A stretch of 58,098 nucleotides of DNA, taken from IMG/VR virus record IMGVR_UViG_3300033143_005075, positions 62,001 through 120,098 of that record, one strand, 5' to 3'. Of this stretch, positions 1 through 43,967 are shown piece after piece. Source of the DNA: an uncultured virus (IMG/VR IMGVR_UViG_3300033143_005075) (taxonomy: Duplodnaviria; Heunggongvirae; Uroviricota; Caudoviricetes). A program made the translations under genes and the position numbers. Every line of letters starts with the position of its first letter. The first letter of the stretch is position 1. The notes beneath the pieces were generated by a model. It was given only the letters and a program-made list of their open reading frames with translations. It was not told where the DNA came from and did no database searches.

Positions 1-131
1 TCAGTGCTCCTCTTTCCTTTAAAGGATCCATCTACTATGACTAGCTCATCTATTAGGTCATAGACAGCATCTATACTGTAGGGCAGTGTCACAATGTTGT
101 TGTAACAAATCCAGCATGCAACAATCTTCAT
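1..131 (-). CDS. GT2-family glycosyltransferase, N-terminal fragment (runs off window edge)
   Basis: Not in the ORF track. Manual translation from ATG at 131 (GGAG RBS upstream) gives MKIVACWICYNNIVTLPYSIDAVYDLIDELVIVDGSFKGKRST, the typical GT-A start (..YN....SI...DE++IVDG....ST). Confidence 0.75.
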   Translation of the reverse strand, partial: MKIVACWICYNNIVTLPYSIDAVYDLIDELVIVDGSFKGKRST

Positions 132-142
132 ATTATTCTCCT

Positions 143-886
143 TTAATCTTCTGTTCCAAATAGACTTCTTATAGGTGCAAATCGACAGTTGTGTTCTGAT
201 GGAAATGTTAACAATGGCTTTGTTGCCCGATCCTTGCTCTTGTAGTGCTTGTATAGCTGTTTCTTATCAAACATCATTTTGTAGTGCCACATACTATATG
301 CACCAACCATGTCCTTGATATCTGCCAGTCGTTTGTTATACTTGTTACTAAAGAGACAACAATCAATTCCATTCAGGTTACGTATATCTTTGAAGACTAT
401 ATCTGGAGTGTTTTTAATAAGTCTTGGTACACTATGATGGCCATTGATTCGTATATGAGGCAAGAACTTATTTCCTGGCACTACTTCATATTGTAGCTGA
501 CTAAAGGATAGAAATGCAGGATTCTTCTCTATCAGATTGTGGAAATCCGTGTGTTCGTGATACAATTCATCTACATCTTTCATTAATATATGCGTGCCCG
601 AACACTTAGATATAGCATATGTTCTACGTTCCATTTCATTAAAGCCATCGGCAGTTCTTTCACGACCAGATACAGTTCTCTTTCTGCCATATCTCTGTCG
701 CATTGGATATAGTTTGATCTTACTAAATCTATTAGCCATTCTATCTAGAAGCTCTGCTGTGCCGTCGGTACTCTCTCCATCGGTAATGATTAACTCATCA
801 ACGAACTGTAGTAAGTTCATGATGGATAACTTTATAATGGGTTTCTCATTATAACTGATCATATATCCGGAGAGCTTTATCTTCAT
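143..886 (-). CDS. GT2-family (GT-A fold) glycosyltransferase
   Basis: Motifs SYNE, DELIITDGESTDGT, RRTYAISKCSG and a DxD motif (KDVDE). Confidence 0.85.
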   Translation of the reverse strand: MKIKLSGYMISYNEKPIIKLSIMNLLQFVDELIITDGESTDGTAELLDRMANRFSKIKLYPMRQRYGRKRTVSGRERTADGFNEMERRTYAISKCSGTHILMKDVDELYHEHTDFHNLIEKNPAFLSFSQLQYEVVPGNKFLPHIRINGHHSVPRLIKNTPDIVFKDIRNLNGIDCCLFSNKYNKRLADIKDMVGAYSMWHYKMMFDKKQLYKHYKSKDRATKPLLTFPSEHNCRFAPIRSLFGTED

Positions 887-1437
887 TTGATTATCTCCAG
901 TATGATTCCATATGATCTCGAACTAAATCTCTCAATGAACCTCATAGTATCGCTATTCATAATCTGTGGTTTTATGTGTGCCATATTCTTGAGGTGGTCT
1001 TTGTATTTAGGATACATATGGACACTGAAATCATATCGATTGAAGAGATCCAGGAAGATAGATAGACTTGGAACGACACAGTCATGTTTATGATTATATC
1101 CTTTAAGAAGATCTTCTATCCGTTGACCATCAGGTCCAAATGGGAACCAGTGTACGGAAGCAATCCTTGCTGTTCTGATTGATTCCGACATGAATTTCGC
1201 TTGGTTGTTCACATGTTCTAACGTAGCAATCGATGTCGTGACATCGAAGCTGTTATCTTTATATGGGAGGTTCGTGCCATCGATTCCATTATTGATATTA
1301 GCATCAGTTACTTTGGCTGTCAGAAACTGTTGCAGTCTTCTGAATCCTCCAATATCCAACACAGTAGAAGGATCATATTTCTTGACATATGAAGCGACAG
1401 CATTATGGATTACTTTAGATACTTCAGGGATATGCAC
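883..1437 (-). CDS. Class I SAM-dependent methyltransferase (type 11-like)
   Basis: Motifs VLDIGG and DGTNLPYKDNSFDVTTSIATLEHV. Confidence 0.85.
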   Translation of the reverse strand: MHIPEVSKVIHNAVASYVKKYDPSTVLDIGGFRRLQQFLTAKVTDANINNGIDGTNLPYKDNSFDVTTSIATLEHVNNQAKFMSESIRTARIASVHWFPFGPDGQRIEDLLKGYNHKHDCVVPSLSIFLDLFNRYDFSVHMYPKYKDHLKNMAHIKPQIMNSDTMRFIERFSSRSYGIILEIIK

Positions 1438-2340
1438 CTAGTCTCCTTCGTGTTTCTTGACAAACTGTAGTATCCCGTCCACCCTGAAATTGATATTGTG
1501 TTGTCTCTTACATCGTTCGTGTGCCCTCTTGCCAATCTCTGCTAGCTGCTCTGGATGTTTCATATAGTGGTTTAACTTGGACAAGATGTCGCTGTATGTG
1601 GTATATGTAATAATTTCCTTGTCATTGAACACCATAGCAATTTCTGGTCGTGCTCTGGTGATAACAGGTACCCCACATGCTGCATACTCGAACATGCGGT
1701 GCGCCAGTGGGCTCCAGTCGTCTTGCACATCCAGTCCTATCTGGCTCTTACCGATAATGCGCAGAAACTTCTCTCCAGTAATAAATCCATGGTTCTCGGG
1801 ATGAGAATTCCATTGGGCACCAAATGCTAGTATTCTATAGGATGTCTCTGATCGTAATTTGTTAACGAATTTGATCCTTGTTTGCTTGTCGTGAAACCAT
1901 GGATGGGTACCCAGTCCGATGACTGATACATCTATATTCTTGGGTGTATCCATTACCTTATGATACCTGAAATCACATGCTGTCTGGTTATAATGCATAG
2001 GAATGGTAGTCTTGTACTTCTCATAGGTACCTATATGGTTGGTGACATATAGATCATAACTCTTAAACCGATCTGGTTTGAAGTAATAGGGATCCGAGAA
2101 ACCAAATCCAACAATGGGTATCTTTATCTTTGCTTTCACTGCAGGACTGAGCAACAGCGCTGAACTGGCTAGCCATATCATTGTTGGAGAGTGTTCCTTA
2201 ATGAGCTGAAGTATCTTGTTCATTTGTGACGTGTCTATCCAGATTATATCTATTCCTCTGCTTTTAACTTCTTCAAATATCGAGCGCTTTGTGCCGTAGT
2301 TGTTGTATGTATACCGGTCGCTAAAGTACAGTATCTTCAT
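1438..2340 (-). CDS. GT-B glycosyltransferase, CgeB/Glyco_trans_1_2-like
   Basis: Motifs FSDPY, DVSVIG, SQIGLD, RMFEYAACG and LAEIGKRAHERC..HN...R. Confidence 0.85.
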   Translation of the reverse strand: MKILYFSDRYTYNNYGTKRSIFEEVKSRGIDIIWIDTSQMNKILQLIKEHSPTMIWLASSALLLSPAVKAKIKIPIVGFGFSDPYYFKPDRFKSYDLYVTNHIGTYEKYKTTIPMHYNQTACDFRYHKVMDTPKNIDVSVIGLGTHPWFHDKQTRIKFVNKLRSETSYRILAFGAQWNSHPENHGFITGEKFLRIIGKSQIGLDVQDDWSPLAHRMFEYAACGVPVITRARPEIAMVFNDKEIITYTTYSDILSKLNHYMKHPEQLAEIGKRAHERCKRQHNINFRVDGILQFVKKHEGD

Positions 2341-2821
2341 GTCTTTCTCCTATCTTCTTGGCGGGATTCCCGGCCCATATTTCATATTGAGGAACATCTT
2401 TTGTGACAATAGCGCCGGCGCCGATTACTGCACCTTGTCCTATGCTTACTCCATCAGTAATAATAGCTGATGCTCCTATCCATACATCATTTGCTATATT
2501 GATACCTTTATGTGTGTTTGGCTGGTTTCTTATCAGAGTATTGCGTTTTATACCGTGGTTCTGTGCATGTATTTGAACTCCAGGACTGATCAGAACATAA
2601 TCTCCAATGGTGATGCCGCCCTGTCCGTGCATAATAGTATTATATCCTACACTGACAAGTTTTCCCATGCGGATGGTTCCTGTACACGTACGGATGATAC
2701 AGTTATGCATGATCTTAGTTCCATTGCCCAGAATAATCTCGCCACCATGTTCATTGTATCCAATGTGTGACTCTGGAGAGATAGTACAATGCGCACCCTT
2801 GATGAGTTTGGCTGTTATCAT
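2321..2821 (-). CDS. Hexapeptide-repeat (left-handed beta-helix) sugar O-acetyltransferase
   Basis: Hexapeptide repeats and DVWIGASAIITDGVSIGQGAVIGAGAIVTKDVP..IWAGNPAKKI. Start moved to 2821 to give an ATGA overlap with the upstream stop. Confidence 0.92.
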   Translation of the reverse strand: MITAKLIKGAHCTISPESHIGYNEHGGEIILGNGTKIMHNCIIRTCTGTIRMGKLVSVGYNTIMHGQGGITIGDYVLISPGVQIHAQNHGIKRNTLIRNQPNTHKGINIANDVWIGASAIITDGVSIGQGAVIGAGAIVTKDVPQYEIWAGNPAKKIGERHEDTVL

Positions 2822-3510
2822 GATTTCACCCATCTGGTATTGCTCTGTCGAGTGAAATGCTTACGTAGAAATGCTAACCCTTTACTCTCCCATACATCAA
2901 TGCTATTCTTGAAATGTCCTGATGATTCTTTCACCTTGAGACTAACTTCTAGTATCAATATGGCATTCTTCTTCATAGCTTTGTGCAATCGTACCAATTC
3001 AGAATAGGGATCATATACATGTTCTAAGACATCTAGACACACGACAATATCATAGTGATCATCCTGTAGAACCGCGTCAGAATATAGTATGTTTGTCTTA
3101 TATCCACGCTTTAGAACACGACTATGTGCAAATCTTAATAGAGGTCCATTAATGTCCATCATGTCTACATAGTTACCACGTTCTAGAAGGACTATGGTGT
3201 GTGTTCCCACACCACTACCATAATCTAAGCATGTTTTATCTTTATGTTTGGTATCTTTAAAATAGTGTCCTCTACGAACAACACTTGTAAACATCAGAGT
3301 CCTGAGGTATGCATGAAAATCCAAACTCTTGAAGTCTTTATATAGATCTATATAGTCCTCTTCATTACGGATAGGAGCACTACCATCATAGATTCTTATA
3401 GAATCTGGCGTGCAAATGCCTAGCTGCTGCACATACCTTAGTGGGATATCTATCAGTGGTCCCAGTTCCTCATCTCTTTCTAGCTGTGTCTCTTCAAGTA
3501 CGCTTTTCAT
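2818..3510 (-). CDS. Class I SAM-dependent methyltransferase
   Basis: Motifs CLDYGSGVG and YDIVVCLDVLEHVYDP. Confidence 0.9.
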   Translation of the reverse strand: MKSVLEETQLERDEELGPLIDIPLRYVQQLGICTPDSIRIYDGSAPIRNEEDYIDLYKDFKSLDFHAYLRTLMFTSVVRRGHYFKDTKHKDKTCLDYGSGVGTHTIVLLERGNYVDMMDINGPLLRFAHSRVLKRGYKTNILYSDAVLQDDHYDIVVCLDVLEHVYDPYSELVRLHKAMKKNAILILEVSLKVKESSGHFKNSIDVWESKGLAFLRKHFTRQSNTRWVKS

Positions 3511-3514
3511 TATC

Positions 3515-4801
3515 TTATCCTCTATTTACTTGCGTATGTTCTTTCAGCCAGTCTCGAAACTCGATTGTTTCAGCATGGAACTCTTCTAGTGTACGATCCT
3601 TGATCTTAAGGATGGGCTTTAGTTCATTCTCTCCACCGGGTCCAAAGAAGTAGAAGTTGTAGTCATCAAGATTCTTGTTAAGGATCTCTACATTGTATTT
3701 GTCAGGATTGTCCCATATATCAGAGCCGGGGATGGGCACGAAGGTGGTGCATGCTATGATAGAGTAGGGGACCCTAGTTAGCCAGTGTTTGTTATCCTCT
3801 ATTGTCTTGGGTGTTTGCCCAGGTGTCCTGATCATCATTAAGATTCGAGTGGTGAACCTGAGCTTGTGAGAGAGTTCGAGCGCTCTGACATTGTCAGCAC
3901 ATGTTGCCCGCTTATCCAATAGCTTTAGGACATCATCGTCGAAACTTTCTACACCAAATGAGAGCTCTTTACACCCGCCATCATACATGGCCTTAAGCAT
4001 GTCCTCTGATAGTGGCTTGGTTCGGCACGATACCCGCCAGTAGATGTCCAGCTTCTGGAGCTCCTTACTAACCTCTATAGCATGTCTTGCATTAGCAGTA
4101 AACATGTCATCAGAAAACCTAAACTGTCGTATACCATACTCATCTATGACTTGTTTGACTTCATCCGCTATTGACTTTGGACTTCTGAGTCGAACCCTAC
4201 TGTTGTGAGTGAAAGAAGGCGCAGAACAGAATGCACACTTGAAGGGACAGCCTCTGGAAGATAGCAGGATTGTGGATTTACCATCGTTAGTGTACTGTTT
4301 CTTGAATGCGAAGATATTTCCACCCATATTCCCATCAAGCATCTCTCTAGCAGGAAATGGCAGAGTATCTAGATCTGTCACAAGTTTCCCATGGTATACT
4401 GGTTTAAGGATGTTGATCTCCATATCTCGCATCATTTCCAGGCATGTTATGTCACCCTCACCTTTTAAGATACTGTCTATATAATTAGTATCAACGAACT
4501 CATCCGCATATGTGCCTGGGCCACCCAGGATCACGTTACATGTAGGATACTTCTGCTTGATCCTCTTGGCAAACCTGTTAGCTGCAAGTAGCTCGAGGCT
4601 TGTCACGGTGATACCATAGACCCTAGACTCTGGAAGATCCTTTATAGCATTATCTATAGAGTACGCGGAGTAGTTCTTCACGACAGTATTATAATCGTTC
4701 TCTTTAAGAACAGCACCTACTGCTAGCAATCCCATGGGTGCCTGTGCGTTGGGCTCATTGAGATATGGATGGGGTAAATATATAAGTATCATGTCATGCA
4801 T
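3515..4801 (-). CDS. Cobalamin-binding radical SAM enzyme (class B methylase-like)
   Basis: B12-binding N-terminal domain (PMGLLAVGAVL, VILGGP), SRGCPFKCAFC CxxxCxxC motif, FSDDMFT and SFGVES. Likely start is MHDMIL at 4801. Confidence 0.92.
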   Translation of the reverse strand: MHDMILIYLPHPYLNEPNAQAPMGLLAVGAVLKENDYNTVVKNYSAYSIDNAIKDLPESRVYGITVTSLELLAANRFAKRIKQKYPTCNVILGGPGTYADEFVDTNYIDSILKGEGDITCLEMMRDMEINILKPVYHGKLVTDLDTLPFPAREMLDGNMGGNIFAFKKQYTNDGKSTILLSSRGCPFKCAFCSAPSFTHNSRVRLRSPKSIADEVKQVIDEYGIRQFRFSDDMFTANARHAIEVSKELQKLDIYWRVSCRTKPLSEDMLKAMYDGGCKELSFGVESFDDDVLKLLDKRATCADNVRALELSHKLRFTTRILMMIRTPGQTPKTIEDNKHWLTRVPYSIIACTTFVPIPGSDIWDNPDKYNVEILNKNLDDYNFYFFGPGGENELKPILKIKDRTLEEFHAETIEFRDWLKEHTQVNRG

Positions 4802-4802
4802 G

Positions 4803-5564
4803 TTATATGTCCTTTGACTTGAATGGACACGCATCCATAAGTTTATTGAGATCTATGTTCACTTTATACTCTTTCATATGAACAGACATGTCTTTGAGTC
4901 TGCCCATATCCGGGGTAAGTCTGACTGATGGGCGACTCACTGAAGCAAAGTAGTCTCTGAATTTGAATCCCTGACCAAAGACTTTATTAGAAAGCTCGAT
5001 CCAGTATGATGGAAGACCGTACGCGTCGCCAGCTATTATTCCATGTAGTGCACTTGAGACGATTCGTTCACATGACAACACATCATCTACAAATCCATTT
5101 ATTGATTGTGTGATATCAATAACCTTGACTTTTGGATTACCTACAAATCGTTTAAGCCATGGATGTTTTACATCTACGTAGTGTGGAATGATGCCCCAAA
5201 CATATTTCTTTTCGACCTTCGGATGATAGTATCTTGGATACAGAAGGGCGGGATCACCATATACTTCTGGACAAGGAACCTTGAGCTGAAGCAGTCTCTG
5301 CCTGGTCATGGGTCCCCTGACTGCTAGAACTTGCTTAGGTGGGCCCTTTTGGAAGTTGTCAGCTGGGAGCATAAATCCACTTCCCCATACTATGGTATTA
5401 CGATCCACAAGATTCATCTGGCTTCCAATTACTGAGTACTTTGGCTTACTTATGTCTGTACATAAAACTGCTTTCTTACCAGAGATTAGTGAAGTTAGAT
5501 ATGGTGAGAGTATGTCTCCCCAATTTGCAAGACCCGCGCACCAACGCATTGGTATTTGATCCAT
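4803..5564 (-). CDS. Polysaccharide pyruvyltransferase (ExoV-like)
   Basis: Motifs NWGD, VWGSG, AVRGPMT, GDPALL, IIPHYVD, SSALHGIIAGDAYGLP and FKFRDY. Confidence 0.9.
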   Translation of the reverse strand: MDQIPMRWCAGLANWGDILSPYLTSLISGKKAVLCTDISKPKYSVIGSQMNLVDRNTIVWGSGFMLPADNFQKGPPKQVLAVRGPMTRQRLLQLKVPCPEVYGDPALLYPRYYHPKVEKKYVWGIIPHYVDVKHPWLKRFVGNPKVKVIDITQSINGFVDDVLSCERIVSSALHGIIAGDAYGLPSYWIELSNKVFGQGFKFRDYFASVSRPSVRLTPDMGRLKDMSVHMKEYKVNIDLNKLMDACPFKSKDI

Positions 5565-5566
5565 GA

Positions 5567-6256
5567 TTATCTCCGTGTCTTATTTAGAATGTAAGCACTA
5601 TTCTTTGCTCCAGTGCCGATATGTTCTACATATTGGTGTGGTAGTGTTGCTAGTTTAAATCCATGATTTGAAAATGTTCCTGTGAATTGTCCCTCGGTGT
5701 TTGGTGGCTTCTTGAATCGACCAGTTTTCCTAACTGCATCCATAGATTGTATACTTGGGTTTAATGTGTAGTGTCCGAACTGTTTACATTTTGCCTTCTT
5801 GTAATCAAACTTTCCCTTATTCTCATCCTTATCCCATAGATGTATGAGACATGATTCGCCCTTGATTATCTTTGGTATGTCACCCATGCCAGGTTTCAAT
5901 ACGACTATCTTTATCCTGGTGGTATTCTTAATGATATGGATTCCTTTGCTTATGAACTTACCTTTCTTGATGAACCGCCAATCATCCTCTAAGTGAAGCA
6001 CATATGGTGTCTTGACATGTTTAAACACATTGTTCAGATTAGCTGCATGTCCTTTCTCTGAAGAACTAAGGACATTCATGAATGGATACAGCTTCTTCAT
6101 TGCTGCAACTTGTTCTTTGGGGGAATGATCATCTGAGACTATCCATTCAGCTATTCTATCTTGGTCTTCGCACATCTCGAGTAATGATGCGATAGTCTTC
6201 TTGAAAAGATGTAATCGCTTACATGTTGTCATTGTTACTGTTACATCTTTAGTCAT
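5567..6256 (-). CDS. GT2-family glycosyltransferase
   Basis: Motifs TMTTCKR, IVSDDHS, YVLHLEDDW, TLNPS and VEHIG. Confidence 0.85.
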   Translation of the reverse strand: MTKDVTVTMTTCKRLHLFKKTIASLLEMCEDQDRIAEWIVSDDHSPKEQVAAMKKLYPFMNVLSSSEKGHAANLNNVFKHVKTPYVLHLEDDWRFIKKGKFISKGIHIIKNTTRIKIVVLKPGMGDIPKIIKGESCLIHLWDKDENKGKFDYKKAKCKQFGHYTLNPSIQSMDAVRKTGRFKKPPNTEGQFTGTFSNHGFKLATLPHQYVEHIGTGAKNSAYILNKTRR

Positions 6257-6259
6257 TAG

Positions 6260-6913
6260 CTACTCCAAGAACCTAATTGCCCGATCGATTTCACATGAAG
6301 GCCCACTGTGGCTACCGGTTTGGCCCATGTGATCTACATATGAATTGATTGTACTACAGATATGCCACTGATCTGTTGTTGCGAGCCAGTAACAGAAGTC
6401 CCAGTCCCATCCTTTATGTTTTGGGCCTTTCTGTGTTGTCTGCTTTCGATACCACTCCCAAGCATCTCTTTTAATAATGCAACCTAACCCACCTATAGAT
6501 ACCTTTCTGACATATCCTTTTGCGTCCCTATTTCCAGCTTTAACTTTATGTGTGTCAGTATTAAACAGGGTACCAAATCCCATTTTTGGGAGATCTTTGA
6601 CCATATTTTCTACAATATTAAAGATATTAGGATGGACAATGCAGTCTGCATCTAGTGCGAATAGATATTCATCCTCACATATAAGAAACTCTTCATTGAT
6701 TGCTCTAGAAGTGGCTTGATATGGTCCTGCTAATGTGCTGTTTTTGGTAATCATGAGGTCCATCTCTTCTATAATTAAAGGATATGCTGTCGTAGACATG
6801 TCATCAAAGAGGTGAAGCTTAATATCAGTCCGGCTACGCATAGCTTCCTTAATAGTTGATAAAGTCAATCTTAAGTAGTTTGGCCGATTCTTAAATGGTA
6901 GAACCACTCTCAT
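6260..6913 (-). CDS. GT-A fold (GT2-like) glycosyltransferase
   Basis: Motifs NRPNYLRLTL, LFDDMST, DxD (LDADC), GWDW and VDHMGQTG. Confidence 0.8.
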   Translation of the reverse strand: MRVVLPFKNRPNYLRLTLSTIKEAMRSRTDIKLHLFDDMSTTAYPLIIEEMDLMITKNSTLAGPYQATSRAINEEFLICEDEYLFALDADCIVHPNIFNIVENMVKDLPKMGFGTLFNTDTHKVKAGNRDAKGYVRKVSIGGLGCIIKRDAWEWYRKQTTQKGPKHKGWDWDFCYWLATTDQWHICSTINSYVDHMGQTGSHSGPSCEIDRAIRFLE

Positions 6914-8043
6914 GTTAACATCTCCTTTACCATTTTAAGTGTCGTATCTTGTCCATAGCTATCAAGTAGCTTCTTCCTCTGTTCTGCAATAATAGCAGGA
7001 CTATCTCTACGTTCATATGCATCACGCATCCAGTTTCTGAGGTCCATGACATCTACATCTGCCCAGTTCATGTAGCAGTTAAAGTAATTATATGCCCAGA
7101 AAGCATTTCTGACAGGTCTCATCCGATATGGGAGCTTCTTCTGATTGTATTCAGTAAGGAAGTCTTCGGGACCACCATATGCTGTAGTGATCACTGGATT
7201 GTTGAACATGATAGCATCTACAATGGGGAGGCCTGTGCCCTCACCGCGGTGGGGGAGAACAAAGCAGTCTCCTAGCTTATGTATTGCTTTCATGGATTCA
7301 TTGCTGAGTTGTTCATGTATCAGAAGTATATCTGGTAGGAGCTCTCGGCCGCATCCCATTTCTATCGTTAGGTTATTAATAGTCTGTATCATTGCCTTTG
7401 TTTCTGCCGGAGAGTGGTCTACTCTGTAGCTCTTCAAAAGTAGAGTAACTGGTTCTGAGGCATCGAACTCGCTGACATATGCCTCGAGCAGTGCATCGGG
7501 GTTCTTTCGTGGGATCCACTGGAAGATTGAATAAAAGCAAAAGTTCTTGGGTCTGAGGTTGTTGATGATTGGATCGAGGTTTGTCTGATTGATGGGCTCA
7601 TCTGCAGATTTGATGTCTTCAGGGAAGAGGGTAGGTGGCAAGACCTTGACTGGGATCTTGACTCCGGATTCTTCGAAGACCTTCTTAATCCGAGTCGCAG
7701 TTACCCAACACTCATCAGCATACTTGTTGAGCTTTGCGACCCAGTCTGTTGGGAGAAGATCAGTCTCCCAGGTAGTGTAGCAGATATTCTTGACGCCGTC
7801 GCGATGGACTTTGTCCATAGCACAGGCTAAGATATGAGAAATTCTTATGTCAGGATCATTGAACTTGTTCTTGAGGCGCTTGCATTCCTGATACTTCCAG
7901 TCATCAGATAGCTTGGTATCATCACTATCTATTTGTGTGACTGAGACATCAAAACCTGCTCTCTTTAGCAGGATGATATTGCGGCGACTGGCATCGCCAT
8001 ACCCACTGTTCTTGAATGCTTCACTGAGGTATTCGACTTTCAT
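6910..8043 (-). CDS. GT4-family (GT-B) glycosyltransferase
   Basis: Motifs SGYG, YTTWETD, QWIPRKN and DCFVLPHRGEGTGLPIVDA...PVITT.YGG. Confidence 0.92.
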   Translation of the reverse strand: MKVEYLSEAFKNSGYGDASRRNIILLKRAGFDVSVTQIDSDDTKLSDDWKYQECKRLKNKFNDPDIRISHILACAMDKVHRDGVKNICYTTWETDLLPTDWVAKLNKYADECWVTATRIKKVFEESGVKIPVKVLPPTLFPEDIKSADEPINQTNLDPIINNLRPKNFCFYSIFQWIPRKNPDALLEAYVSEFDASEPVTLLLKSYRVDHSPAETKAMIQTINNLTIEMGCGRELLPDILLIHEQLSNESMKAIHKLGDCFVLPHRGEGTGLPIVDAIMFNNPVITTAYGGPEDFLTEYNQKKLPYRMRPVRNAFWAYNYFNCYMNWADVDVMDLRNWMRDAYERRDSPAIIAEQRKKLLDSYGQDTTLKMVKEMLT

Positions 8044-8073
8044 CTAAAGCTCTCCTATTCTCTATTTTATGGC

Positions 8074-8102
8074 AGCGTATAGTCTTGTATAGATCTTGTC
8101 AA
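8074..8102 (-). promoter_or_regulatory. Putative sigma70-type promoter of the glycosylation operon
   Basis: Minus strand reads TTGACA, 17 nt, TACGCT in the 78-nt intergenic gap, followed by an AGGAG RBS before the GT4 ATG. Confidence 0.65.
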
Positions 8103-8121
8103 GTCATTTAAGAATAATTCG

Positions 8122-34382: not shown

Positions 34383-34384
34383 CT

Positions 34385-37075
34385 TTATGCCTTATCGATA
34401 AAGTTGCTATAGTCATAGATGGCCGGCGTGGCCGTATCAATGCTTCTATCTGTTCTGTATAGTTTTATTACAGAAGCTAAGATATCGGGGAGCACATAGT
34501 ATCTTACTGTAATCTCAAGATCTATATTTGTATTGAAGTATACACGATTTGCCTCTACATAATATTCGTAGTTTCTCCTGGCTGGACTAAACTCTGTAAA
34601 CTCAGGCTTCGTATTACCCACATAGTCAGTAAGGTTTCGTGCTCTTTTGCCTCTGATGGTAATGATAACCGGTTCATATACTACATCATTATTATACTCA
34701 AGCACAAAGATTCCATCTCCCTCTCTCCAGATTGGAGGAACAGTAGATGTGTCACCAATGATTCGCGGATCGATATAGATCCCAAACTCCAGAGTAATGA
34801 CGTTATCTTCATCGGTACCAAAGAAAAGTTCTGTCCTGTTCTGTTCAGCAATGTTACTTTGCTGAGCACCAACATCTCCACTGAGTGGGATATATGATGT
34901 CTTCATAATACCATCGATACCAGAGTGCAGAGGTGTTGTGAATGCATTCTTATCATTACCGGGATATGATGTATCTGTATCATACTCGGATGTGATCAAA
35001 GGTCTTCCCGACATATATACATGTAGAGAACCTGGTATGTAATCATATGCAGTATTGAATGATGTACCTCCGCCTCCACTGATATTCTCATTGATAATAC
35101 CATAGTAGATCGCTCTTTGCGGAGGAGTAACATATTCTCCTGAGATTCCATAAAGATATGGTGCAACTAGATCTACATATGGAGGGAATATGGAATCATT
35201 CATGCTCTTCTTACTCTTTATACCATATCCAAACTCGGGGATATCTCCAGATGCACTAGATGGGATGAGGAACGGGTGTGCTTCATCATTAGTGATGCTG
35301 TAAGAAACGAAGTCACCATTCTGTGTCTCTATGATCATTCTCTGAAGATTACCATCTTCAAGCTGGTTGCGAAGATTTGGCTTTCCACCTATATCCACAA
35401 TGTTAAGTGTGTTAGGACTATATGGATTTCCAAGATCGTTGACTGAAGCAACTTTATATTTGATCGTAACGAAGTCACCAAGACCCAGTGTATATGAGTT
35501 GTCAAATGTGATACCATATGCCATTTGTGATGTTGCATATGGTTTACGAATCGAATAGTTGGCGCCACCAACAATCGACCCATTTCTAGTTACTTCAATG
35601 TTTATTGCAGAATCTAGAAATAGATCTGTGTTATATGTCTTAACAGTTGTATCATTTATAGTGATGATATCTGTCATCCATTCATCATTTGAATCGAATC
35701 GATGTACATCACCGCCTACTTCAAGATAATAATTTGCAAGTGTTCCATCAGGGACATTGTCATTCTTAACAAGAGTAACCGCTGTAATGTCACCACGTCC
35801 ACCGAATGTCTGTGATCTATATATATTATCATCCTGATATCTATTATTATATATCCTAAGATCGAACATGCCAATGTTGTACCAATATGTGGATGTCAAA
35901 TCTCCCTTGTTACCGTCCTCTGAGTTCAAGTCTAGATTAAGAGTATCAATAGCATTTTGGATGAGCACTTTGATCTTCTTATCGATACTCTCTCGGACAA
36001 TAGTTGGCACAACCTGGTTGAAACCGCTAGTATTCTGTGTGCTATTCTTACCTATTTCATGAAGGACATCACTAAAGCTTCTTGTCTCTCCACTAAAGAA
36101 TAGTCTGCTGGCCATGTCTGCAGCTATCTTCTTGATCTTATACTTCTCTTGCTTGACCTTAATCATAATACTGCGTGCATCGACCTGCTCGAAATTAAAG
36201 TTAAAGTTTCGATAGTTGAACACATCGGTTCGTGTGTTGATCTCTGTCCAGTTAGTAGAATCGGAACTTGTATTAATATCACTAACATAGAAGATTCCTT
36301 CTATGGTAAGAGCATGGGATGAAAACTGCCCAAATGAAATATTATTGATCCATTTTGCTGCTGGAAGAACAATGATAATTGCATATTCTATTCCTGCAGG
36401 AGAATCAGATATGATATCCATGTCCATTGTATTGACAAATGATTCAGCAGCAAGTGTTTCATTATTGATGACGGTCAAAGCGCCCCGGGTGACTGGCTTC
36501 AGATATAGATCATATCCAAGTTCATCTTTGACAATATCATCGACATTCACGGTGTTTAATGTAATAACTCCAGCGGTATCCTTGTTAATCGTGGATGAGT
36601 CGCGAATTGGATATGTATTATCATCAGAAGTAAATGAGTTATGTATAACCTCATCAAATTCCACATGGAGATTGCTCAATGCCTCCAGACTCTGGATACG
36701 ACTTGTCTGATCATCTACTTTGCTAATCATCTTACTAATAACTCTGTCCATCATGATGACTGTCTGGGTTAGAATCGTTACGAAGCTCGAGAGATTATCA
36801 TATAGCACAGCAAGGTCGATTTGGATATTCTCAATCATCTCATTGTAGTTATTAGATCGTAGCTTCTGAGATTCAAATTCAAATGGAACAGATGCTTGCC
36901 CATTGACTCTGACTTGATCCATCGCTGTTTCTATATGCTGTGTTACCTCACTGAGAATTGGGGCAATTTGGGTCTCAGGACTACTTATAGTCTTGAATAG
37001 ATATGCCTTGATCTCTTTGAGATAATTCTCAATATAAGGTTGCTTATAATATCTCGGTTCTAATATGTCAGCCAC
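34385..37075 (-). CDS. Putative baseplate/virion structural protein (paralogue family member), 896 aa
   Basis: SNNYNEMIENIQIDLAVLYD helix; C-terminal ATPAIYDY. Confidence 0.6.
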   Translation of the reverse strand: MADILEPRYYKQPYIENYLKEIKAYLFKTISSPETQIAPILSEVTQHIETAMDQVRVNGQASVPFEFESQKLRSNNYNEMIENIQIDLAVLYDNLSSFVTILTQTVIMMDRVISKMISKVDDQTSRIQSLEALSNLHVEFDEVIHNSFTSDDNTYPIRDSSTINKDTAGVITLNTVNVDDIVKDELGYDLYLKPVTRGALTVINNETLAAESFVNTMDMDIISDSPAGIEYAIIIVLPAAKWINNISFGQFSSHALTIEGIFYVSDINTSSDSTNWTEINTRTDVFNYRNFNFNFEQVDARSIMIKVKQEKYKIKKIAADMASRLFFSGETRSFSDVLHEIGKNSTQNTSGFNQVVPTIVRESIDKKIKVLIQNAIDTLNLDLNSEDGNKGDLTSTYWYNIGMFDLRIYNNRYQDDNIYRSQTFGGRGDITAVTLVKNDNVPDGTLANYYLEVGGDVHRFDSNDEWMTDIITINDTTVKTYNTDLFLDSAINIEVTRNGSIVGGANYSIRKPYATSQMAYGITFDNSYTLGLGDFVTIKYKVASVNDLGNPYSPNTLNIVDIGGKPNLRNQLEDGNLQRMIIETQNGDFVSYSITNDEAHPFLIPSSASGDIPEFGYGIKSKKSMNDSIFPPYVDLVAPYLYGISGEYVTPPQRAIYYGIINENISGGGGTSFNTAYDYIPGSLHVYMSGRPLITSEYDTDTSYPGNDKNAFTTPLHSGIDGIMKTSYIPLSGDVGAQQSNIAEQNRTELFFGTDEDNVITLEFGIYIDPRIIGDTSTVPPIWREGDGIFVLEYNNDVVYEPVIITIRGKRARNLTDYVGNTKPEFTEFSPARRNYEYYVEANRVYFNTNIDLEITVRYYVLPDILASVIKLYRTDRSIDTATPAIYDYSNFIDKA

Positions 37076-39102: not shown

Positions 39103-39788
39103 AATGTAATGATCACCTGTTCTATATCGTTGATCTGCGTTCTTGCATTCATAATGAACTCAGGATCTATAATATTTGTAGAGAATGTAATATTAGACCC
39201 TGGTACTAGTTTCTGGTGAGTGTTTACAAGCACGTATCTAAGATAGTTTATCGCTGATACGATCTGAGTAAATAGTGATTTATCTACTACAGATGAGGTC
39301 GTAACTTCTGCTGATTCACTCAGTGCACCAAGTCTGCCTACTGGCCAAAGAGTCTTCTCCAGATGAAGATCTAATTCTGCAGCATTGATGGCTGTGATTA
39401 AGTTCGTTAGATGTACCTTCTTTAGAGGACACAATATCCAGTTGTATTTGGTTGGTAGTATCTTCTTTCCAATATAGAAGTTATTTTGTCCTATCTTTAT
39501 TGGAAGATAGTCAATCATAATCCATCCTAACATGTCAGATACTATGCTAAATCTACCCTGTCCTTCTTCTTGAGTGGTAACCAATATTCCATTCAGATAT
39601 ACTCTCAGAGAATAATCCTTTGCAATGTATTTAGTTACATGGATGGCGCCCACTTCATGTAATCCAATAGTGACATATGGAACTATTATTGCTTCCGGCA
39701 CTTCGCCCACAACCTTGGTATACCAAAGGCTTGTTCGTCCTATCTCAAGTGCTTCCAGTCCTGTCTCTCCGCCGAGCCAGTTAGTCAT
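39099..39788 (-). CDS. Putative virion structural protein, 229 aa
   Basis: Translationally coupled on both sides; SLRVYLNG beta motif. Confidence 0.55.
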   Translation of the reverse strand: MTNWLGGETGLEALEIGRTSLWYTKVVGEVPEAIIVPYVTIGLHEVGAIHVTKYIAKDYSLRVYLNGILVTTQEEGQGRFSIVSDMLGWIMIDYLPIKIGQNNFYIGKKILPTKYNWILCPLKKVHLTNLITAINAAELDLHLEKTLWPVGRLGALSESAEVTTSSVVDKSLFTQIVSAINYLRYVLVNTHQKLVPGSNITFSTNIIDPEFIMNARTQINDIEQVIITL

Positions 39789-41865
39789 AATTTACTCCAA
39801 TTAGGTCAGCTGTGTGTGAAATTAGCATTTCCCAGCCAACATAACCACCACTTAGTGCTGCATTGAAAGTCACATGTGCATGACCTTCCCCATCATACCA
39901 CAGTTCTGATCCTCTGTCAGTTACCAAAGGTTCAGAAAATGAGGTCAGTCCTGGTACATGGTGCGCATCAGAGAAATCAGTTGCAGTATATAATCTCACC
40001 ATTTGTTCGCCACCGTATGGGTATGTATTAAGCTCTATTTCTGGAGTAGCTCCGGAGAAGTCCACATACTGGAATTTTGTAGCTATATTAGGTATAGAGA
40101 ACCCATCTACTGGTGTATCAACATATCCATCGATGGATGTTCCAACTGACAGGATCCGAAAGTTGAGGATGTCTGAGATTGTTGGTGTTCCTGAGATGGA
40201 TAGCCTGATTGCATTATCAGTTGTATAGTTATTGAAGTTATGTATCCTGATTGGGAGTTCAGCGCTTCCGAATATGTCTGTCTCAGCATATTTGACTAAG
40301 CCTATGTCACCAGAGACATCGAAGTATGCTCTGGCTGGCATTGCATATGTCTGGACTGCCTCGATCGCTCTGAAGAGTCCGATCTGATATGAGTCAAATA
40401 TATCCCCAGAATATGATTCATCAAGGATGGCCTTATGCTCGATGCTTCTTACCCTGTTTCCAGATGGATATGATAAAACTTCATATTCATCAAGTGATTG
40501 TGTAGATGATATTATGTCACCTGATAAGTTCTCGAGGTATTTCTCAATGTCGAATCTGACTATGACACCACTGAGAGGTGCGCCATCTTCATCGCGTATA
40601 TTAGCTACGACATGTATAAGATTTGTATCACCAGAGACTACTTCTGTAGAGACTACTGGTTGGATCACGCTCTGAGTGAGATACCCAGCAATGCTATATG
40701 GATCTTTCTCTTGTGACTGAATCGCAAAGATCCTATCTCCATCCTCCCATGTCAGCGGAGAGAGATCAGTATCTGGGAGAATACATTTATCTTCACCCAG
40801 TTCTTCATATGTAACCACTAAACTGCCTGAGGTTATTGTCTGTACTGTGCCACTGTGGTCATAATAGTTTGTTGCGATAGGATTACCAGAGAGCTCTCTA
40901 TCCTCGATCTCAGTACCACTGATATATACTCTAGACAAACCTTCGGCTTTATGGAATGGAGATAGAGGTGTAACATTATCATTCCATTCTTCAGAGTGAT
41001 GATCATGGAATTGGTCACTCTCAAAGATCAGATGACCAGACACGAGACCACTTTGGCATCCGGCCGTCAGAGGATCTATGGTTCCAACTCTGATCATGAT
41101 TGGAGCATAGTCATTTGGTGTACCTGATAATACAGAACCAGATATGTGATCTGGGAAGACCTCAGTTACCTTAGATCCATATAGATATGTTTCCTGTCCA
41201 TCCAGATATAGATAGCCATCCTGTAATTCAGGAGCATAGTTATAGATATTGCCATGATCAATTGATTGTTCACGAATTAAACCAGTGAGTATATCACCAC
41301 TAATCGTGAACTGTCCTGGTCCAATGACATCATTAGGATCAAAGTTCATGATCCTGATCATATTGAGATCATCTTCAAATCCTATTCCACATCGTGCTTC
41401 GGAGTTTGTCTCACCAGATTTATCATAGTATGTATTGAAGACTCTAGTAAATCCTGAACGTACGTCTTTGGCATCTAACCAGCTTTCATCTGCTCTTATA
41501 TGTCCCCAGTTAGATATATTAATAGCTTCAAGGCTTGTAATCCGATCAGTCATGTTTGCTGTAGGTTCTCCACTTAGGAAGAAACCATTAGCATCGTTAT
41601 AGAGAAATCCTTCATCATTCAAATAGTGTATACGAATATGATCTGCATCTGTATCAGTATATCCAAGTGTAGCGTCTCTGAGATTAGCGAGAAGATCTAA
41701 TAGCTCTTGAGTTGGATCACCATTCTCATCCAGGAGGCTTTCTACATCAGGGATAGAATCCAAGCTATCTATTCCGGCATGGAAATCGAAACCTGCGGCA
41801 GCATTCTGGAACTCAGAATTGTTCTTTACCAGATACTCAAGTATAATATGTCCACTTAGATCCAT
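39781..41865 (-). CDS. Putative baseplate protein with Ig-like (Big_1-like) domain, Ser-Gly rich
   Basis: VVANIRDEDGAPLSGVIVRF...AETDIFGSA pattern; about 22 SG dipeptides by manual count. Confidence 0.6.
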   Translation of the reverse strand: MDLSGHIILEYLVKNNSEFQNAAAGFDFHAGIDSLDSIPDVESLLDENGDPTQELLDLLANLRDATLGYTDTDADHIRIHYLNDEGFLYNDANGFFLSGEPTANMTDRITSLEAINISNWGHIRADESWLDAKDVRSGFTRVFNTYYDKSGETNSEARCGIGFEDDLNMIRIMNFDPNDVIGPGQFTISGDILTGLIREQSIDHGNIYNYAPELQDGYLYLDGQETYLYGSKVTEVFPDHISGSVLSGTPNDYAPIMIRVGTIDPLTAGCQSGLVSGHLIFESDQFHDHHSEEWNDNVTPLSPFHKAEGLSRVYISGTEIEDRELSGNPIATNYYDHSGTVQTITSGSLVVTYEELGEDKCILPDTDLSPLTWEDGDRIFAIQSQEKDPYSIAGYLTQSVIQPVVSTEVVSGDTNLIHVVANIRDEDGAPLSGVIVRFDIEKYLENLSGDIISSTQSLDEYEVLSYPSGNRVRSIEHKAILDESYSGDIFDSYQIGLFRAIEAVQTYAMPARAYFDVSGDIGLVKYAETDIFGSAELPIRIHNFNNYTTDNAIRLSISGTPTISDILNFRILSVGTSIDGYVDTPVDGFSIPNIATKFQYVDFSGATPEIELNTYPYGGEQMVRLYTATDFSDAHHVPGLTSFSEPLVTDRGSELWYDGEGHAHVTFNAALSGGYVGWEMLISHTADLIGVNYD

Positions 41866-43967
41866 ATAAGTGCATCCTCATTCACCTTTAATGTATCATT
41901 CTCTATTCTAAACATCTCTGTTTCACCTGAATAGAACATAAACTTTGAATAAAGATATGCGCTATCTCGATATACCTTATCTTCAGTGATTGTATCCCAC
42001 CATACAGGAACATCGTTATGTCTTAAGAGTGTTCCGCTGATTCGCTCACTTGCCGGTGCTGATGATAATCGATATGTCAGTGGATCAGTTATAATATATG
42101 GTGATGATCTCAAAGATCTTGCGATTCCATAATGGATACCCTGTGGGTCCATTGTCCATGGATTATCATATACATCTAAGCATGTTTCTTTTAGACTACT
42201 ATTGTTCTCTCCTGGATGCCTCTCTAATCCGCGCTCGAGCGCGTATTCATCGAAGACATTCCACAGATGGAAATATGTTTGAAGCATTGTTGCTTCTGGA
42301 TATGGTGTGAGAGAATCATATTTCTCTCTAAACACTAGGTTGCTTTTAGTCGTTCGTTCATTAACATCTCTCGAATAGACATCCACAAGAGGATAAAGAA
42401 ACTTTAGATTATCACCATCTATTGTCATTAATCTATCTGAATCTATAGAACCAAGAGAGGTAACGCCAGACGAGAGACCTTCTCCATCCCTGATACGAAT
42501 ATCTGGATCCCCATTCATAATGTTTCCTGCATGTACTGGGAGCTTTACAAGCGATGCTTCTGGATTAGATATACTAGTCTCAATGAGATATATCCATGTC
42601 TTTCCATTGATGATGACTAGAACATATATAAGATTATCGATATATGTAATCCCGCGGAATTGTGTATTCTTGTGTTCATAGGGAAGGATGATTTTAAACT
42701 TATCTCTATTAATACCAATTGCGTCATATTTTACTGCCCAGATGCAACGATTTATTTCATCCAAGTAATAGAATACTCCAAGTGATGGATCATATGCTGA
42801 ATCAATATACCCTTCGTCAAAATTAGTAAGCAAGTGTCCAAATGTCTCGTTCCTAAATGATTCCATTGATAAATCAATCCGCACATCTGGACCAACTGCA
42901 TTCCTATAGAATGAAGTAGTTCCAGCATATCCATCTCTTGGAATCTGGAAGGTGATCGAATATGCACCAGCTGCTCCGAATTCCAGGATATCGCCACCAT
43001 CTGGTCTTATTGTATTAGCAAGAGTTTGTACTCTGAGGAGATCTAGTTCATCAATGACTTCGTCTCCATTGAGATCATATTGTGCATACAATTCATCCCA
43101 TGCGACAGGGTCATCAGAACGCTTTATTCCAAGATGTGGAATAATTAGTTGTTCTTCTCGTGCATCTATGATACCATCATTATCTAGATCATCTCTGGTC
43201 TCGTATACTGTTTTCCAGTCTTGTGTATTTGTCCAGGTCGTTAAGTCTTCTCCATCAGAAGTAACATTGTCTATTGTTCTGGTTATAGTTGGCATAGATC
43301 CTAGATGATAATCTAGCACCATTCTTGAACCCGATATTGCAGCTTCAAAGTCAACAGTTATATCAGTATACATTGGATCTACAAATGTTCTGAGACCAAG
43401 CTCAGCTTCTGCAATATTACTAAACTGTTCTGGTATTGTAATGCCGTGTGCATATGAAGGCTCAACGGTTTCCCCGGATAGTTCACCAGAGACGGTCGTT
43501 ATTAGATACTCTCCTGCTGTAGTGTCATACTCGCCCATTTGCGGGACGCCAGATAATCCAAGGCTATCAATTGGGAGTGATCCAGAGACGAAGAATCCAG
43601 TTGGATTTGCAATTCTGAAATTATCAGGTGTAACTTCGGTAATACCGATTGCTACACCAGAGATATTTCCATTTACTGAGTCAACAGCATTTAGATATTG
43701 ATCTGAAGATCCATATTGATTTGGATGGTTAGATATATCATCTTCATCAGACACCCATGCTTTGTATGGAAAGGCATCTGGATCAGCAGTTGCTAACGTC
43801 AAGCTTCGCTCGAGTTCTGGTAGCATTAGTTCCAGATCATCTAATAGTAGACTGAATGGATTGATCATCCTACGCGCAAAAGAGTTTAGATCTCTCTTTG
43901 CTGCGGACCAACCAGGCCAATCTTTTAGTATCTGACTCGTAAATAGTGATGCAGTTGATCTAGGCAC
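41856..43967 (-). CDS. Putative baseplate wedge-like protein with dockerin-like Ca-binding pair
   Basis: Follows the baseplate J-like gene. WNVFDEYALERGLERHPGENN..L motif, plus DLDNDGIID and DLNGDEVIDELD. Confidence 0.6.
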   Translation of the reverse strand: MPRSTASLFTSQILKDWPGWSAAKRDLNSFARRMINPFSLLLDDLELMLPELERSLTLATADPDAFPYKAWVSDEDDISNHPNQYGSSDQYLNAVDSVNGNISGVAIGITEVTPDNFRIANPTGFFVSGSLPIDSLGLSGVPQMGEYDTTAGEYLITTVSGELSGETVEPSYAHGITIPEQFSNIAEAELGLRTFVDPMYTDITVDFEAAISGSRMVLDYHLGSMPTITRTIDNVTSDGEDLTTWTNTQDWKTVYETRDDLDNDGIIDAREEQLIIPHLGIKRSDDPVAWDELYAQYDLNGDEVIDELDLLRVQTLANTIRPDGGDILEFGAAGAYSITFQIPRDGYAGTTSFYRNAVGPDVRIDLSMESFRNETFGHLLTNFDEGYIDSAYDPSLGVFYYLDEINRCIWAVKYDAIGINRDKFKIILPYEHKNTQFRGITYIDNLIYVLVIINGKTWIYLIETSISNPEASLVKLPVHAGNIMNGDPDIRIRDGEGLSSGVTSLGSIDSDRLMTIDGDNLKFLYPLVDVYSRDVNERTTKSNLVFREKYDSLTPYPEATMLQTYFHLWNVFDEYALERGLERHPGENNSSLKETCLDVYDNPWTMDPQGIHYGIARSLRSSPYIITDPLTYRLSSAPASERISGTLLRHNDVPVWWDTITEDKVYRDSAYLYSKFMFYSGETEMFRIENDTLKVNEDALIWI

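Follow-up and report, generated by a model that had tools for sequence, protein, structure and literature searches.

The stretch of DNA analysed here (hereafter the window) comprises 58,098 nucleotides, bases 62001-120098 of the 120-kb IMG/VR record IMGVR_UViG_3300033143_005075, and belongs to an uncultured tailed virus. It encodes a series of large tail-fibre and outer baseplate proteins that are rich in the dipeptide Ser-Gly (SG) and, directly downstream of the fibre genes, an operon of ten putative glycan-building enzymes. The same phage is represented in full by a 234,008-bp IMG/VR contig that has direct terminal repeats (G001); it is an uncultured myovirus-like jumbo phage of 234 kb, and the window is the distal-tail half of its late region. 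The SG excess in the outer tail and fibre proteins is real, two- to four-fold in size, and not generic to phage tails.

All large open reading frames (ORFs) of the window lie on the minus strand. Upstream of the window, G001 encodes the terminase, portal, protease, major head protein, sheath, and three giant proteins of 1491-2570 amino acids (aa). The major head protein shares 25-27% identity with its counterparts in 0305phi8-36-like Bacillus jumbo phages, Moorella phage MTATph1, and Acinetobacter phage ME3. Read in the direction of transcription, the window opens with a 2652-aa protein, a hub-like protein of 979 aa, and a wedge protein resembling baseplate J. A series of large baseplate proteins comes next (703, 694, 675, 896, 511, and 884 aa), then two proteins with lectin domains (1138 and 803 aa), the 336-aa fibre-tip protein, and the three fibre paralogues (278, 560, and 1714 aa). 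The last tail genes are those of a Laminin_G/NHL protein and a DUF4376 protein, with the glycan operon behind them. For the 36 window ORFs examined, SG counts were compared with the expectation from composition, with the reversed dipeptide Gly-Ser (GS), with Thr-Gly (TG), and with 20,000 shuffles. The tail proteins are as follows, with observed SG counts against those expected.

49978..57936 (-): 2652-aa giant tail protein; SG 12 against 9.6, at background, an internal negative control
47162..50101 (-): 979-aa hub-like protein; SG 4 against 6.7, no enrichment; anchor of the tail module in relatives
41856..43967 (-): 703-aa baseplate protein; SG 9 against 3.7, a mild excess
39781..41865 (-): 694-aa outer baseplate protein, non-repetitive; SG 22 against 5.3; C-terminal half predicted to be tandem β-sandwich
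34385..37075 (-): 896-aa baseplate protein; SG 8 against 4.2, six of the eight at residues 609-732; weak
30193..32847 (-): 884-aa virion structural protein; SG 8 against 4.3, not significant
24870..28286 (-): 1138-aa protein with a Laminin_G_3 (ConA-like lectin) domain; SG 13 against 6.7
21854..22864 (-): 336-aa tail-fibre tip protein (PHROG 4492); SG 8 against 2.8
18345..20756 (-): 803-aa tail protein with Laminin_G_3 domains; SG 12 against 7.1; GS also 12, no asymmetry
16936..17772 (-): 278-aa fibre paralogue with the same modules as the other fibres; SG 11 against 2.9
15253..16935 (-): 560-aa fibre with an Mtd_N-type N-terminus and repeated modules; SG 20 against 4.8
10109..15253 (-): 1714-aa fibre with His-x-His/PTR-like modules and a right-handed β-helix (Beta_helix, residues 1175-1323); SG 47 against 16.2, GS 13
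8682..10109 (-): 475-aa Laminin_G_3 and NHL β-propeller protein, the last large tail gene; SG 6 against 4.0, no enrichment
8122..8682 (-): 186-aa tail protein (DUF4376), encoded just upstream of the glycan operon

None of the shuffles reached the observed SG number for the 1714-, 694-, 560-, and 278-aa proteins, the shuffle maxima being 35, 15, 14, and 10 against the observed 47, 22, 20, and 11, respectively. The observed number was reached by 64, 156, and 221 of the 20,000 shuffles for the 336-, 703-, and 1138-aa proteins, and by 844 and 1084 for the 803- and 896-aa proteins, which are barely enriched. SG is thus extreme in four proteins and only mildly enriched in five. When the proteins are pooled, 78 SG are found against 23.9 expected in the fibres (an observed/expected ratio, O/E, of 3.3), 93 against 58.0 in 15 other structural proteins, and 12 against 10.3 in 11 enzymes; the O/E is about 4 in the 694-aa protein. 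SG tops the over-represented dipeptides of the fibres, the 694-aa protein, and the pooled other tail proteins, but not those of the enzymes, and GS stays at expectation in all of these groups. The 22 SG of the 694-aa protein stand beside five GS and one TG. Elsewhere in the genome, the replication half (63 ORFs) has an SG O/E of 1.19, the major head protein has two SG against 1.2 and the sheath seven against 3.1 (weak), and the tail-tube-region proteins are not enriched. An earlier note on this DNA, made from the sequence alone, had counted SG by hand, and its counts are exact on recount. The enrichment beyond composition that it claimed is borne out as specific to Ser and to the order of the residues, and the 2652-aa protein and the enzymes are at background as it had stated. 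Among the proteins it had listed as enriched, the 1714- and 694-aa proteins are extreme and the 1138-aa protein is mildly so; the 803- and 896-aa proteins are barely so, the former having as many GS as SG.

The sequence context of SG is also biased. The preceding residue is Ile, Val, Leu, or Ala ([IVLA]) in 112 of the 179 sites (63%; background 29%), and the following one is Asp, Glu, or Thr in 35% (background 23%). The acidic flanks that the earlier note had described are therefore weakly present on the side after Gly, and on the other side the neighbour is hydrophobic in 63%. Acidic-flanked Ser-Gly is the acceptor of the xylosyltransferase of animal proteoglycans. The proteoglycan-like analogy drawn earlier fails because the residue preceding Ser is hydrophobic and not acidic, and no xylosyltransferase-type family was found; the two share the Ser-Gly dipeptide, and the resemblance is superficial.

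All six serine codons (AGY and TCN) and all four Gly codons are used at the SG sites in near-background proportions, so that the effect lies at the protein level, and a DNA-level motif is ruled out as its cause. Tandem repeats are ruled out as the sole cause for the 694-aa protein, in which no internal repeat was detected: its best 15-residue window scored 32 against a shuffle mean of 29.8 and a maximum of 41, and the repetitive 560-aa fibre, the positive control of this test, scored 82. BLAST self-comparison was uninformative, with 0 off-diagonal high-scoring segment pairs even for the repetitive fibres. In the fibres, repeats are part of the cause. Their 78 SG sites fall into 35 contexts, and 50 of the 78 are copies from seven recurrent modules; with the repeat copies masked, 21 SG are left against 10.1 expected (GS 9). 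The statement that repeats do not explain the excess thus holds for the 694-aa protein and in part for the fibres.

We compared the 694-aa protein with 17 metagenomic homologues (21-58% identity), which make a family of 18 members. SG is in excess (z ≥ 3.7) in 17 of the 18, including 16 of the 17 homologues (z 3.7-9.0). Pooled over the 17 homologues, SG amounts to 275 against 79.1 expected (O/E 3.48), with O/E values of 1.36 for Asn-Gly (NG) and 0.51 for Gly-Gly. No match to the family was found among GenBank phages, and an IMG/VR search gave the window phage alone; for genomic context, metagenome scans gave nothing or only contigs of 11.9 and 7.3 kb, and a scan of GTDB genomes gave nothing. 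Only one member, P0011, has no SG excess (three SG). It is encoded at 5319-7088 of the 11.9-kb metagenome contig L232, all seven ORFs of which are SG-normal, which indicates that the trait varies between lineages. Its sister member P0009 has 13 SG, and a neighbour ORF of P0009 is also SG-enriched. P0011 can be regarded as a natural negative control; the same protein is also encoded on a 137-kb contig of a different collection.

In the AlphaFold2 (AF2) model of the 694-aa protein, the mean predicted local distance difference test score (pLDDT) is 49.9 overall, and residues ~414-681, at 60-85, are modelled as tandem β-sandwiches. The eight SG sites within this confident stretch, at 432-672, are all placed in loops between strands, and a further one, at 411, is in a loop of low confidence immediately ahead of the stretch. 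Within their loops, SG takes the first residue at two of the nine modelled sites (518 and 558), a middle position at three, and the end at three. A Foldseek search with the model gave weak tandem immunoglobulin-like resemblances, none at E ≤ 1e-3. Among solved structures, none is related to the 694 family, to the fibre modules, or to the 377-aa glycosyltransferase (GT) of the operon, and ESM Atlas gave no usable match for the 694-aa protein or a 648-aa ORF.

These positions bring us to what the excess may be for. We judge the chances to be about even that it is a lineage-specific structural Ser-Gly turn code and that the operon is a separate feature. SG would mark loop or turn positions between β-strands in the β-rich proteins of the baseplate periphery and the fibres, a typical site consisting of the hydrophobic last residue of a strand, Ser, Gly, and often Asp, Glu, or Thr. 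The same kind of position would be filled in other phages by Asp-Gly (DG), NG, TG, or Ala-Gly. This lineage would have settled on SG and increased its number, in the fibres through duplicated modules and in the non-repetitive proteins through gains at single sites; Ser would probably owe its place to structure or history and not to a role as acceptor. The ten enzymes, soluble and encoded in the late region, would build a heteroglycan on some cytoplasm-accessible acceptor.

Besides the modelled loop positions and the module copies that hold most fibre sites, the replacements seen in homologues speak for the turn code. In 13 homologues of the 694-aa protein, the Ser of aligned SG sites is replaced mainly by Asp (20), Thr (20), Asn (13), Gly (13), and Ala (11), the usual turn residues, and whole SG sites read DG or NG in relatives. 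The Moorella phage, which is GT-less, has a 694-family homologue with 18 SG against 7.0 expected. Homologues of the 336-aa fibre tip occur in cultured phages, including those of Stenotrophomonas, Ralstonia, and Rhizobium, and have four of its eight SG sites in common with it. With the fibre repeat region as query, 1059 proteins are retrieved at E ≤ 1e-3, PF12789 (PTR) being precomputed on most of the 120 listed; the three fibres themselves do not attain E ≤ 0.01 for PF12789 or PF03406 (Phage_fiber_2) in our Pfam scan, and the 278-aa fibre has no match among GenBank phages. In 48 non-redundant PTR-type homologues, 367 SG stand against 213.5 expected (O/E 1.72), with an O/E above 2 in 15 of the 48 and above 3 in two.

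The total for Ser, Asp, or Asn before Gly ([S/D/N]-Gly) is also informative. Its excess in the tail module is 1.51 in the window phage, 1.48 in 0305phi8-36, 1.51 in MTATph1, and 1.02 in T4. The equal excess in 0305phi8-36 and MTATph1, which use Asp and Asn instead, fits the structural reading. The O/E of DG is 0.86 in the window phage against 1.83 in 0305phi8-36 and 1.75 in the Moorella phage, and that of NG is 1.19 against 1.57 and 1.28, beside 2.47 for SG in the window phage. Different lineages seem to prefer different residues before Gly.

One cause of such a preference might be chemical. Deamidation and isoaspartate formation occur most readily at Asn-Gly and Asp-Gly, and Ser may have replaced Asn or Asp before Gly in long-lived extracellular fibres, which would avoid these reactions. 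The equal [S/D/N]-Gly total with lower DG and NG values here, and the aligned SG sites that read DG or NG in homologues, are in line with this explanation. However, it leaves the replacement of Thr or Ala before the GHxH motif of the fibres (below) unexplained, other phages tolerate NG and DG, and NG is not depleted here; we consider it very unlikely.

Several observations weigh against the turn code, and most of them favour a different reading, in which the SG serines are acceptors of sugars. The excess is confined to Ser: TG has an O/E of 0.25 in the 694-aa protein itself and of 0.64 across the family, where DG is at 1.0; we found no structural reason for Ser over Asp, Asn, or Thr. It is limited to distal tail proteins expected on the tail exterior and is absent from the capsid, the giant proteins, and the enzymes. 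All 14 T4 baseplate and fibre proteins lack it (z -1.3 to 1.7), as do all 148 ORFs of 0305phi8-36 and all 153 of KLEB27-3, by which SG excess as a generic property of tail proteins is ruled out. In three alignments of the 694 family of increasing depth, SG serines are about twice as conserved as other serines (0.73 against 0.36, 0.52 against 0.25, and 0.38 against 0.20). The 219 SG of 14 aligned members are spread over 85 columns, 40 of them singletons, with 11-22 sites kept per member, and distant members have only 4-10 of their 11-22 sites in common with the window protein. The few common columns at a steady SG number indicate a conserved core with site turnover at constant density, which looks like selection on motif density. 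Finally, the residue before GHxH in the window phage is Ser in 10 of 14 cases (Thr in three, Ala in one) against 17 of 159 in homologues, where Thr (81), Val (19), and Ala (13) account for most others. In favour of the turn code, on the other hand, several SG sites stand right next to a His-x-His motif (SGHxH, ten copies), and in T4 gp37 such motifs face the fibre axis.

In the reading that most of the points against the turn code favour, a soluble GT of the operon would place a first sugar on the Ser of exposed [V/I/L/A]-S-G loops in the cytoplasm, and the other enzymes would extend and decorate it, giving a sugar-coated tail apparatus. The best candidate for the initiating enzyme would be the 377-aa GT-B, which is conserved beside fibre genes. 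The specificity for Ser, for the SG order and for its neighbours, the conservation and turnover in the 694 family, and the lineage-dependent trait seen with P0011 are all as such a sequon would produce. SG has also been gained here: the 336-aa protein has eight SG (z 3.4) against 2-6 in its cultured-phage homologues (mean 3.6, n = 8; z -0.6 to 1.9), and its four sites not found in them include one GS-to-SG swap, a gain that the Ser before GHxH parallels. On the other hand, four of five homologue genomes checked have no match to GT1 or GT2 families, the fifth having a sub-threshold GT1 match, and half of the SG sites of the 336-aa protein predate any GT. The expectation that homologues from GT-less phages lack SG at aligned positions is thus borne out for the four unique sites and contradicted by the four common ones. 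The SG-rich homologue in the Moorella phage and the small share of modelled sites at the first loop residue also count against a sequon. Furthermore, ~180 acceptors, many in trimeric fibre modules beside metal-binding His, would have to be reached before folding.

We examined the operon, which occupies window positions 143-8043 and consists of five Pfam glycosyltransferases and five modifiers. Its ORFs abut or overlap on the same strand, directly downstream of the fibre genes.

6910..8043 (-): 377-aa GT-B glycosyltransferase (Glycos_transf_1), the first operon gene; Pfam
6260..6913 (-): 217-aa GT2 glycosyltransferase; Pfam
5567..6256 (-): 229-aa GT2 glycosyltransferase; Pfam, NCBIfam
4803..5564 (-): 253-aa polysaccharide pyruvyl transferase; PS_pyruv_trans, E 8e-12
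3515..4834 (-): 439-aa B12-binding radical S-adenosylmethionine (SAM) enzyme of the class-B methylase type; Pfam, NCBIfam
2818..3510 (-): 230-aa SAM methyltransferase; Pfam
2321..2833 (-): 170-aa hexapeptide-repeat (sugar) acetyltransferase; Pfam, NCBIfam
1438..2340 (-): 300-aa Glyco_trans_1_2 glycosyltransferase; E 6.7e-25
883..1437 (-): 184-aa SAM methyltransferase; Pfam
143..886 (-): 247-aa GT2 glycosyltransferase; Pfam, NCBIfam

To the left of the window, the operon continues with a weak GT2 match (E 2e-4) and three ORFs without assigned function. Six glycosyltransferases and five modifiers had been described in the earlier note; five of each are in the window, and the sixth GT is this weak GT2 just outside it. 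All NCBIfam matches of the operon enzymes are far below the equivalog cut-offs. None of the ten proteins has a transmembrane (TM)-like segment. Judging from its gene content, the operon could build a methylated, acetylated, and pyruvylated heteroglycan, and its position makes expression together with the virion genes probable; a promoter and terminator scan of positions 1-10500 stayed at chance level and was uninformative on co-transcription. The Glyco_trans_1_2 enzyme has no match in cultured phages, and the radical SAM enzyme matches three cultured-phage records, two of which are the same Streptomyces phage, with no more than 51% of its length covered. A 913-aa GT1-domain protein is encoded in the replication region (G000 54368-57109, plus strand), far from the operon and on the other strand.

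No initiating phosphoglycosyl transferase, flippase or transporter, or polymerase was matched by Pfam among 36 window ORFs, 45 of the left 62 kb, and 90 others of the 234-kb genome, and no sugar-nucleotide enzyme was found among the ORFs searched across the phage genome. These absences argue against an autonomous surface-polysaccharide pathway. Likewise, no ThyA-like hydroxymethylase was found (no Thymidylat_synt-type match at E ≤ 1e-3 and 1e-6 in the ORFs of at least 100 aa scanned), which argues against glycosylation of hydroxymethylated DNA bases. Both results, together with the co-oriented and tightly packed arrangement of ten enzymes free of TM segments, are in line with sugar transfer to virion proteins.

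The same gene content also bears on a further explanation, according to which the operon has nothing to do with the virion and late in infection modifies glycans of the host envelope (lipid-linked O-antigen, capsule, or teichoic-acid intermediates) or another cytoplasmic acceptor. Such modification could stop progeny from sticking to debris or exclude competitors; SG would be unrelated to it, and the explanation is compatible with the turn code. A combination of GT1, GT2, pyruvyl transferase, WcaF/WbbJ-like acetyltransferase, and methylases is what surface-polysaccharide clusters typically encode, and TM segments are also lacking in peripheral GTs whose acceptors are lipid-linked. The soluble GTs of the operon may thus equally act on host lipid-linked intermediates, which weakens the case for a sequon; such action is compatible with the gene content, and host machinery could substitute for the missing genes. 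The lack of an initiating transferase, flippase, polymerase, or nucleotide-sugar gene among the phage ORFs searched speaks against a role on host glycans, and so does the place of the GT-B gene. Full-length orthologues of the 377-aa GT-B (31-34% identity, E 2e-47 to 6e-65) are found in six relatives (G002, G004, G006, G007, G010, and G012) downstream of the fibre module on the same strand, although the terminases are only about 30% identical. This conserved position points to a tail-linked role. In G006, the orthologue is the sole GT1/GT2-type gene found. A role on host glycans remains, in our estimation, doubtful, though not remote.

We then turned to the co-occurrence of GTs and SG. A terminase alignment gave 76 IMG/VR loci, and 16 long contigs and three cultured relatives were compared. 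GT status was assigned from Pfam GT1 and GT2 searches, two further GT families being searched in the cultured relatives; 0305phi8-36 and Moorella phage MTATph1 gave no match to the four families. The tail module was taken to comprise the ORFs of 250 aa or more on the same strand, up to 40 kb downstream of the gene homologous to that of the 979-aa protein, and to end at the first GT. Five contigs with little downstream DNA (SG O/E 1.22-1.58), G009 without a hub homologue, and G020 with less than 3 kb downstream were placed outside the classification. The 13 classified genomes are as follows.

This phage: GT-bearing, SG O/E 2.47, SG:GS 179:70
G002: GT-bearing, SG O/E 1.61, SG:GS 81:41
G012: GT-bearing, SG O/E 1.64, SG:GS 95:49
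G010: GT-bearing, SG O/E 1.52, SG:GS 105:68
G004: GT-bearing, SG O/E 1.44, SG:GS 69:42
G014: GT-bearing, SG O/E 1.41, SG:GS 26:16
G007: GT-bearing, SG O/E 1.39, SG:GS 80:53
G006: GT-bearing, SG O/E 1.35, SG:GS 63:39
G003: GT-less, SG O/E 1.11, SG:GS 80:87
G005: GT-less, SG O/E 1.28, SG:GS 76:61
0305phi8-36: GT-less, SG O/E 1.01, SG:GS 45:46
Moorella phage: GT-less, SG O/E 1.47, SG:GS 79:66
KLEB27-3: GT-less, SG O/E 1.19, SG:GS 71:89

The SG:GS ratio of the tail module is 1.5-2.6 in all eight GT-bearing genomes and 0.8-1.25 in all five GT-less ones, a direction in line with a sequon. However, the terminase tree groups all seven GT-bearing relatives in a single clade (support 95/99) and the GT-less genomes in two others, with the window phage alone on a long branch. 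The comparison therefore amounts to about two lineages against two, and owing to this tree the co-occurrence across the 13 genomes was not used as a probability. In addition, the GT-bearing relatives have only a 1.35- to 1.64-fold SG excess and lack the [IVLA]-S-G context, which is found at 19-42% of their sites against a background of 27-29%. The link between SG and GTs put forward in the earlier note is therefore right in direction, and it rests on few lineages and lacks the sequence context in the relatives.

Taken together, the turn code appears somewhat more likely than the glycosylation sequon, the evidence from sequence fitting turn building at least as well as sugar attachment. Sequon-directed O-glycosylation of the virion seems to us rather unlikely, by a little more than the role on host glycans. 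The fully specified form, an autonomous cytoplasmic system with a [V/I/L/A]-Ser-Gly sequon that places a pyruvylated, methylated, and acetylated heteroglycan on ~180 serines of at least eight fibre and outer baseplate proteins with the GT-B initiating, is a shade more doubtful still. The sequon-directed glycan coat inferred in the earlier note thus keeps its factual basis, in that the enrichment, its restriction to outer tail proteins, and the operon are real; the DG and NG replacements, the ancestral sites, and the equal [S/D/N]-Gly total fit the structural reading instead.

Other features of this genome deserve mention. Amid the tail-fibre module lies an oddly placed nuclease-type enzyme, a 428-aa calcineurin-like metallophosphoesterase (window 23290-24576, minus strand; PHROG 284 'exonuclease', E 2e-49), with homologues in G002, G003, and G006. 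Four giant ORFs of 1491, 2570, 2054, and 2652 aa stand in a row between the tail tube and sheath genes and the baseplate (G001 95-120 kb and window 49978-57936); no Pfam family was matched in them, and their SG is at background. Residues 260-314 of the 703-aa baseplate protein give a sub-threshold match to the calcium-binding Dockerin_1 domain (19.9 bits against a cut-off of 22.9). Outside the window, a 1250-aa helicase (G000 44011-47763, plus strand) contains an intein (Intein_splicing, residues 516-867), and intein/HINT domains also occur in the terminases of several relatives (P0141, P0143, P0161, P0169, and P0183). A 1208-aa ORF (G000 3147-6773, plus strand) combines motifs of Rpb2 domain 6 (RNA-polymerase β) and Rpb1 domain 2 (β′) and looks like a fused multisubunit-type phage RNA polymerase. 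The early region (G001 7-57 kb) encodes ClpP, NAD synthase, RtcB, a second RNA ligase, and Fic, NADAR, and isochorismatase-family proteins. Among the products of the replication region are an anaerobic ribonucleotide reductase and its activase, a pair that suggests an anaerobic host.

Should the SG serines prove to be acceptors, phage tail fibres would have their first glycosylation system defined by a sequon. The consequences would concern host recognition, the shielding of virions against proteases, and the frequent GT clusters of large phages, and glycosylated virions could be sought in metagenomes by a simple sequence signature. If they are not, lineages would share a total excess of small polar residues before Gly in turns and differ in the residue, Ser here and Asp or Asn in 0305phi8-36-like phages, a warning against calling such excesses beside GT genes sequons without phylogenetic control. 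In either case, the GT-B gene, with its conserved position behind the fibre genes, offers a concrete target for experiments. In the literature on glycosylation of phage virions and tail fibres, covered mostly as titles and abstract openings, we found neither a Ser-Gly sequon nor glycosylated phage tail fibres.

Known systems resemble parts of this one. Wzx/Wzy- or ABC-type polysaccharide clusters are marked by initiating, flippase, and polymerase genes, which the phage ORFs searched do not include. The Ser/Asx-Gly β-turns and the PTR (PF12789)/PF03406 fibres are similar in that SG lies in inter-strand loops and GHxH modules, and homologous fibre modules occur in more than 1000 metagenomic proteins; the degree of the SG excess and its restriction to Ser are unusual here. 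Precedents for sugars on such proteins come from the virion glycans of Mycobacterium phages and from the enzyme Aah. According to the accessible text of one source, mycobacteriophage glycans are found on the C-termini of capsid and tail-tube subunits, with phage-encoded GTs (PMC12619734, citing Freeman 2023). Like the window phage, these are tailed phages with their own GTs, for which virion proteins as acceptors and a shielding role are proposed. Unlike in those phages, the candidate signal here lies in the fibres and outer baseplate rather than the major capsid protein, and the window operon is much larger, with pyruvyl, methyl, and acetyl transferases.

Aah and TibC, whose acceptors are AIDA-I, TibA, and Ag43, are cytoplasmic enzymes that O-glycosylate many Ser residues of β-rich fibrous adhesins, which is similar to what a sequon would imply here. 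As far as the accessible part of the source goes, Aah recognises a strand-loop-strand fold with the acceptor at the loop start (PMC3835316). It does so without a sequence consensus, whereas a sharp dipeptide is found here, placed at the first loop residue of two of nine modelled sites, and none of the ten enzymes of the window matches a heptosyltransferase family (Pfam, NCBIfam), the matches being to GT1, GT2, and modifier families. The fibrils of Mimivirus, as described in the accessible portion of the literature, carry self-made polysaccharides with pyruvate ketals, O-methyl, and N-acetyl groups, their attachment sites being still unknown (PMC8456856). Mimivirus differs in being a eukaryotic giant virus with glycans shown by nuclear magnetic resonance and with its own sugar-nucleotide pathways, genes for which were not found here; the operon could nevertheless add the same set of decorations. 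By analogy, Aah/TibC would be the nearest mechanistic counterpart of the window operon, and the Mimivirus fibril polysaccharides the nearest for its predicted decorations.

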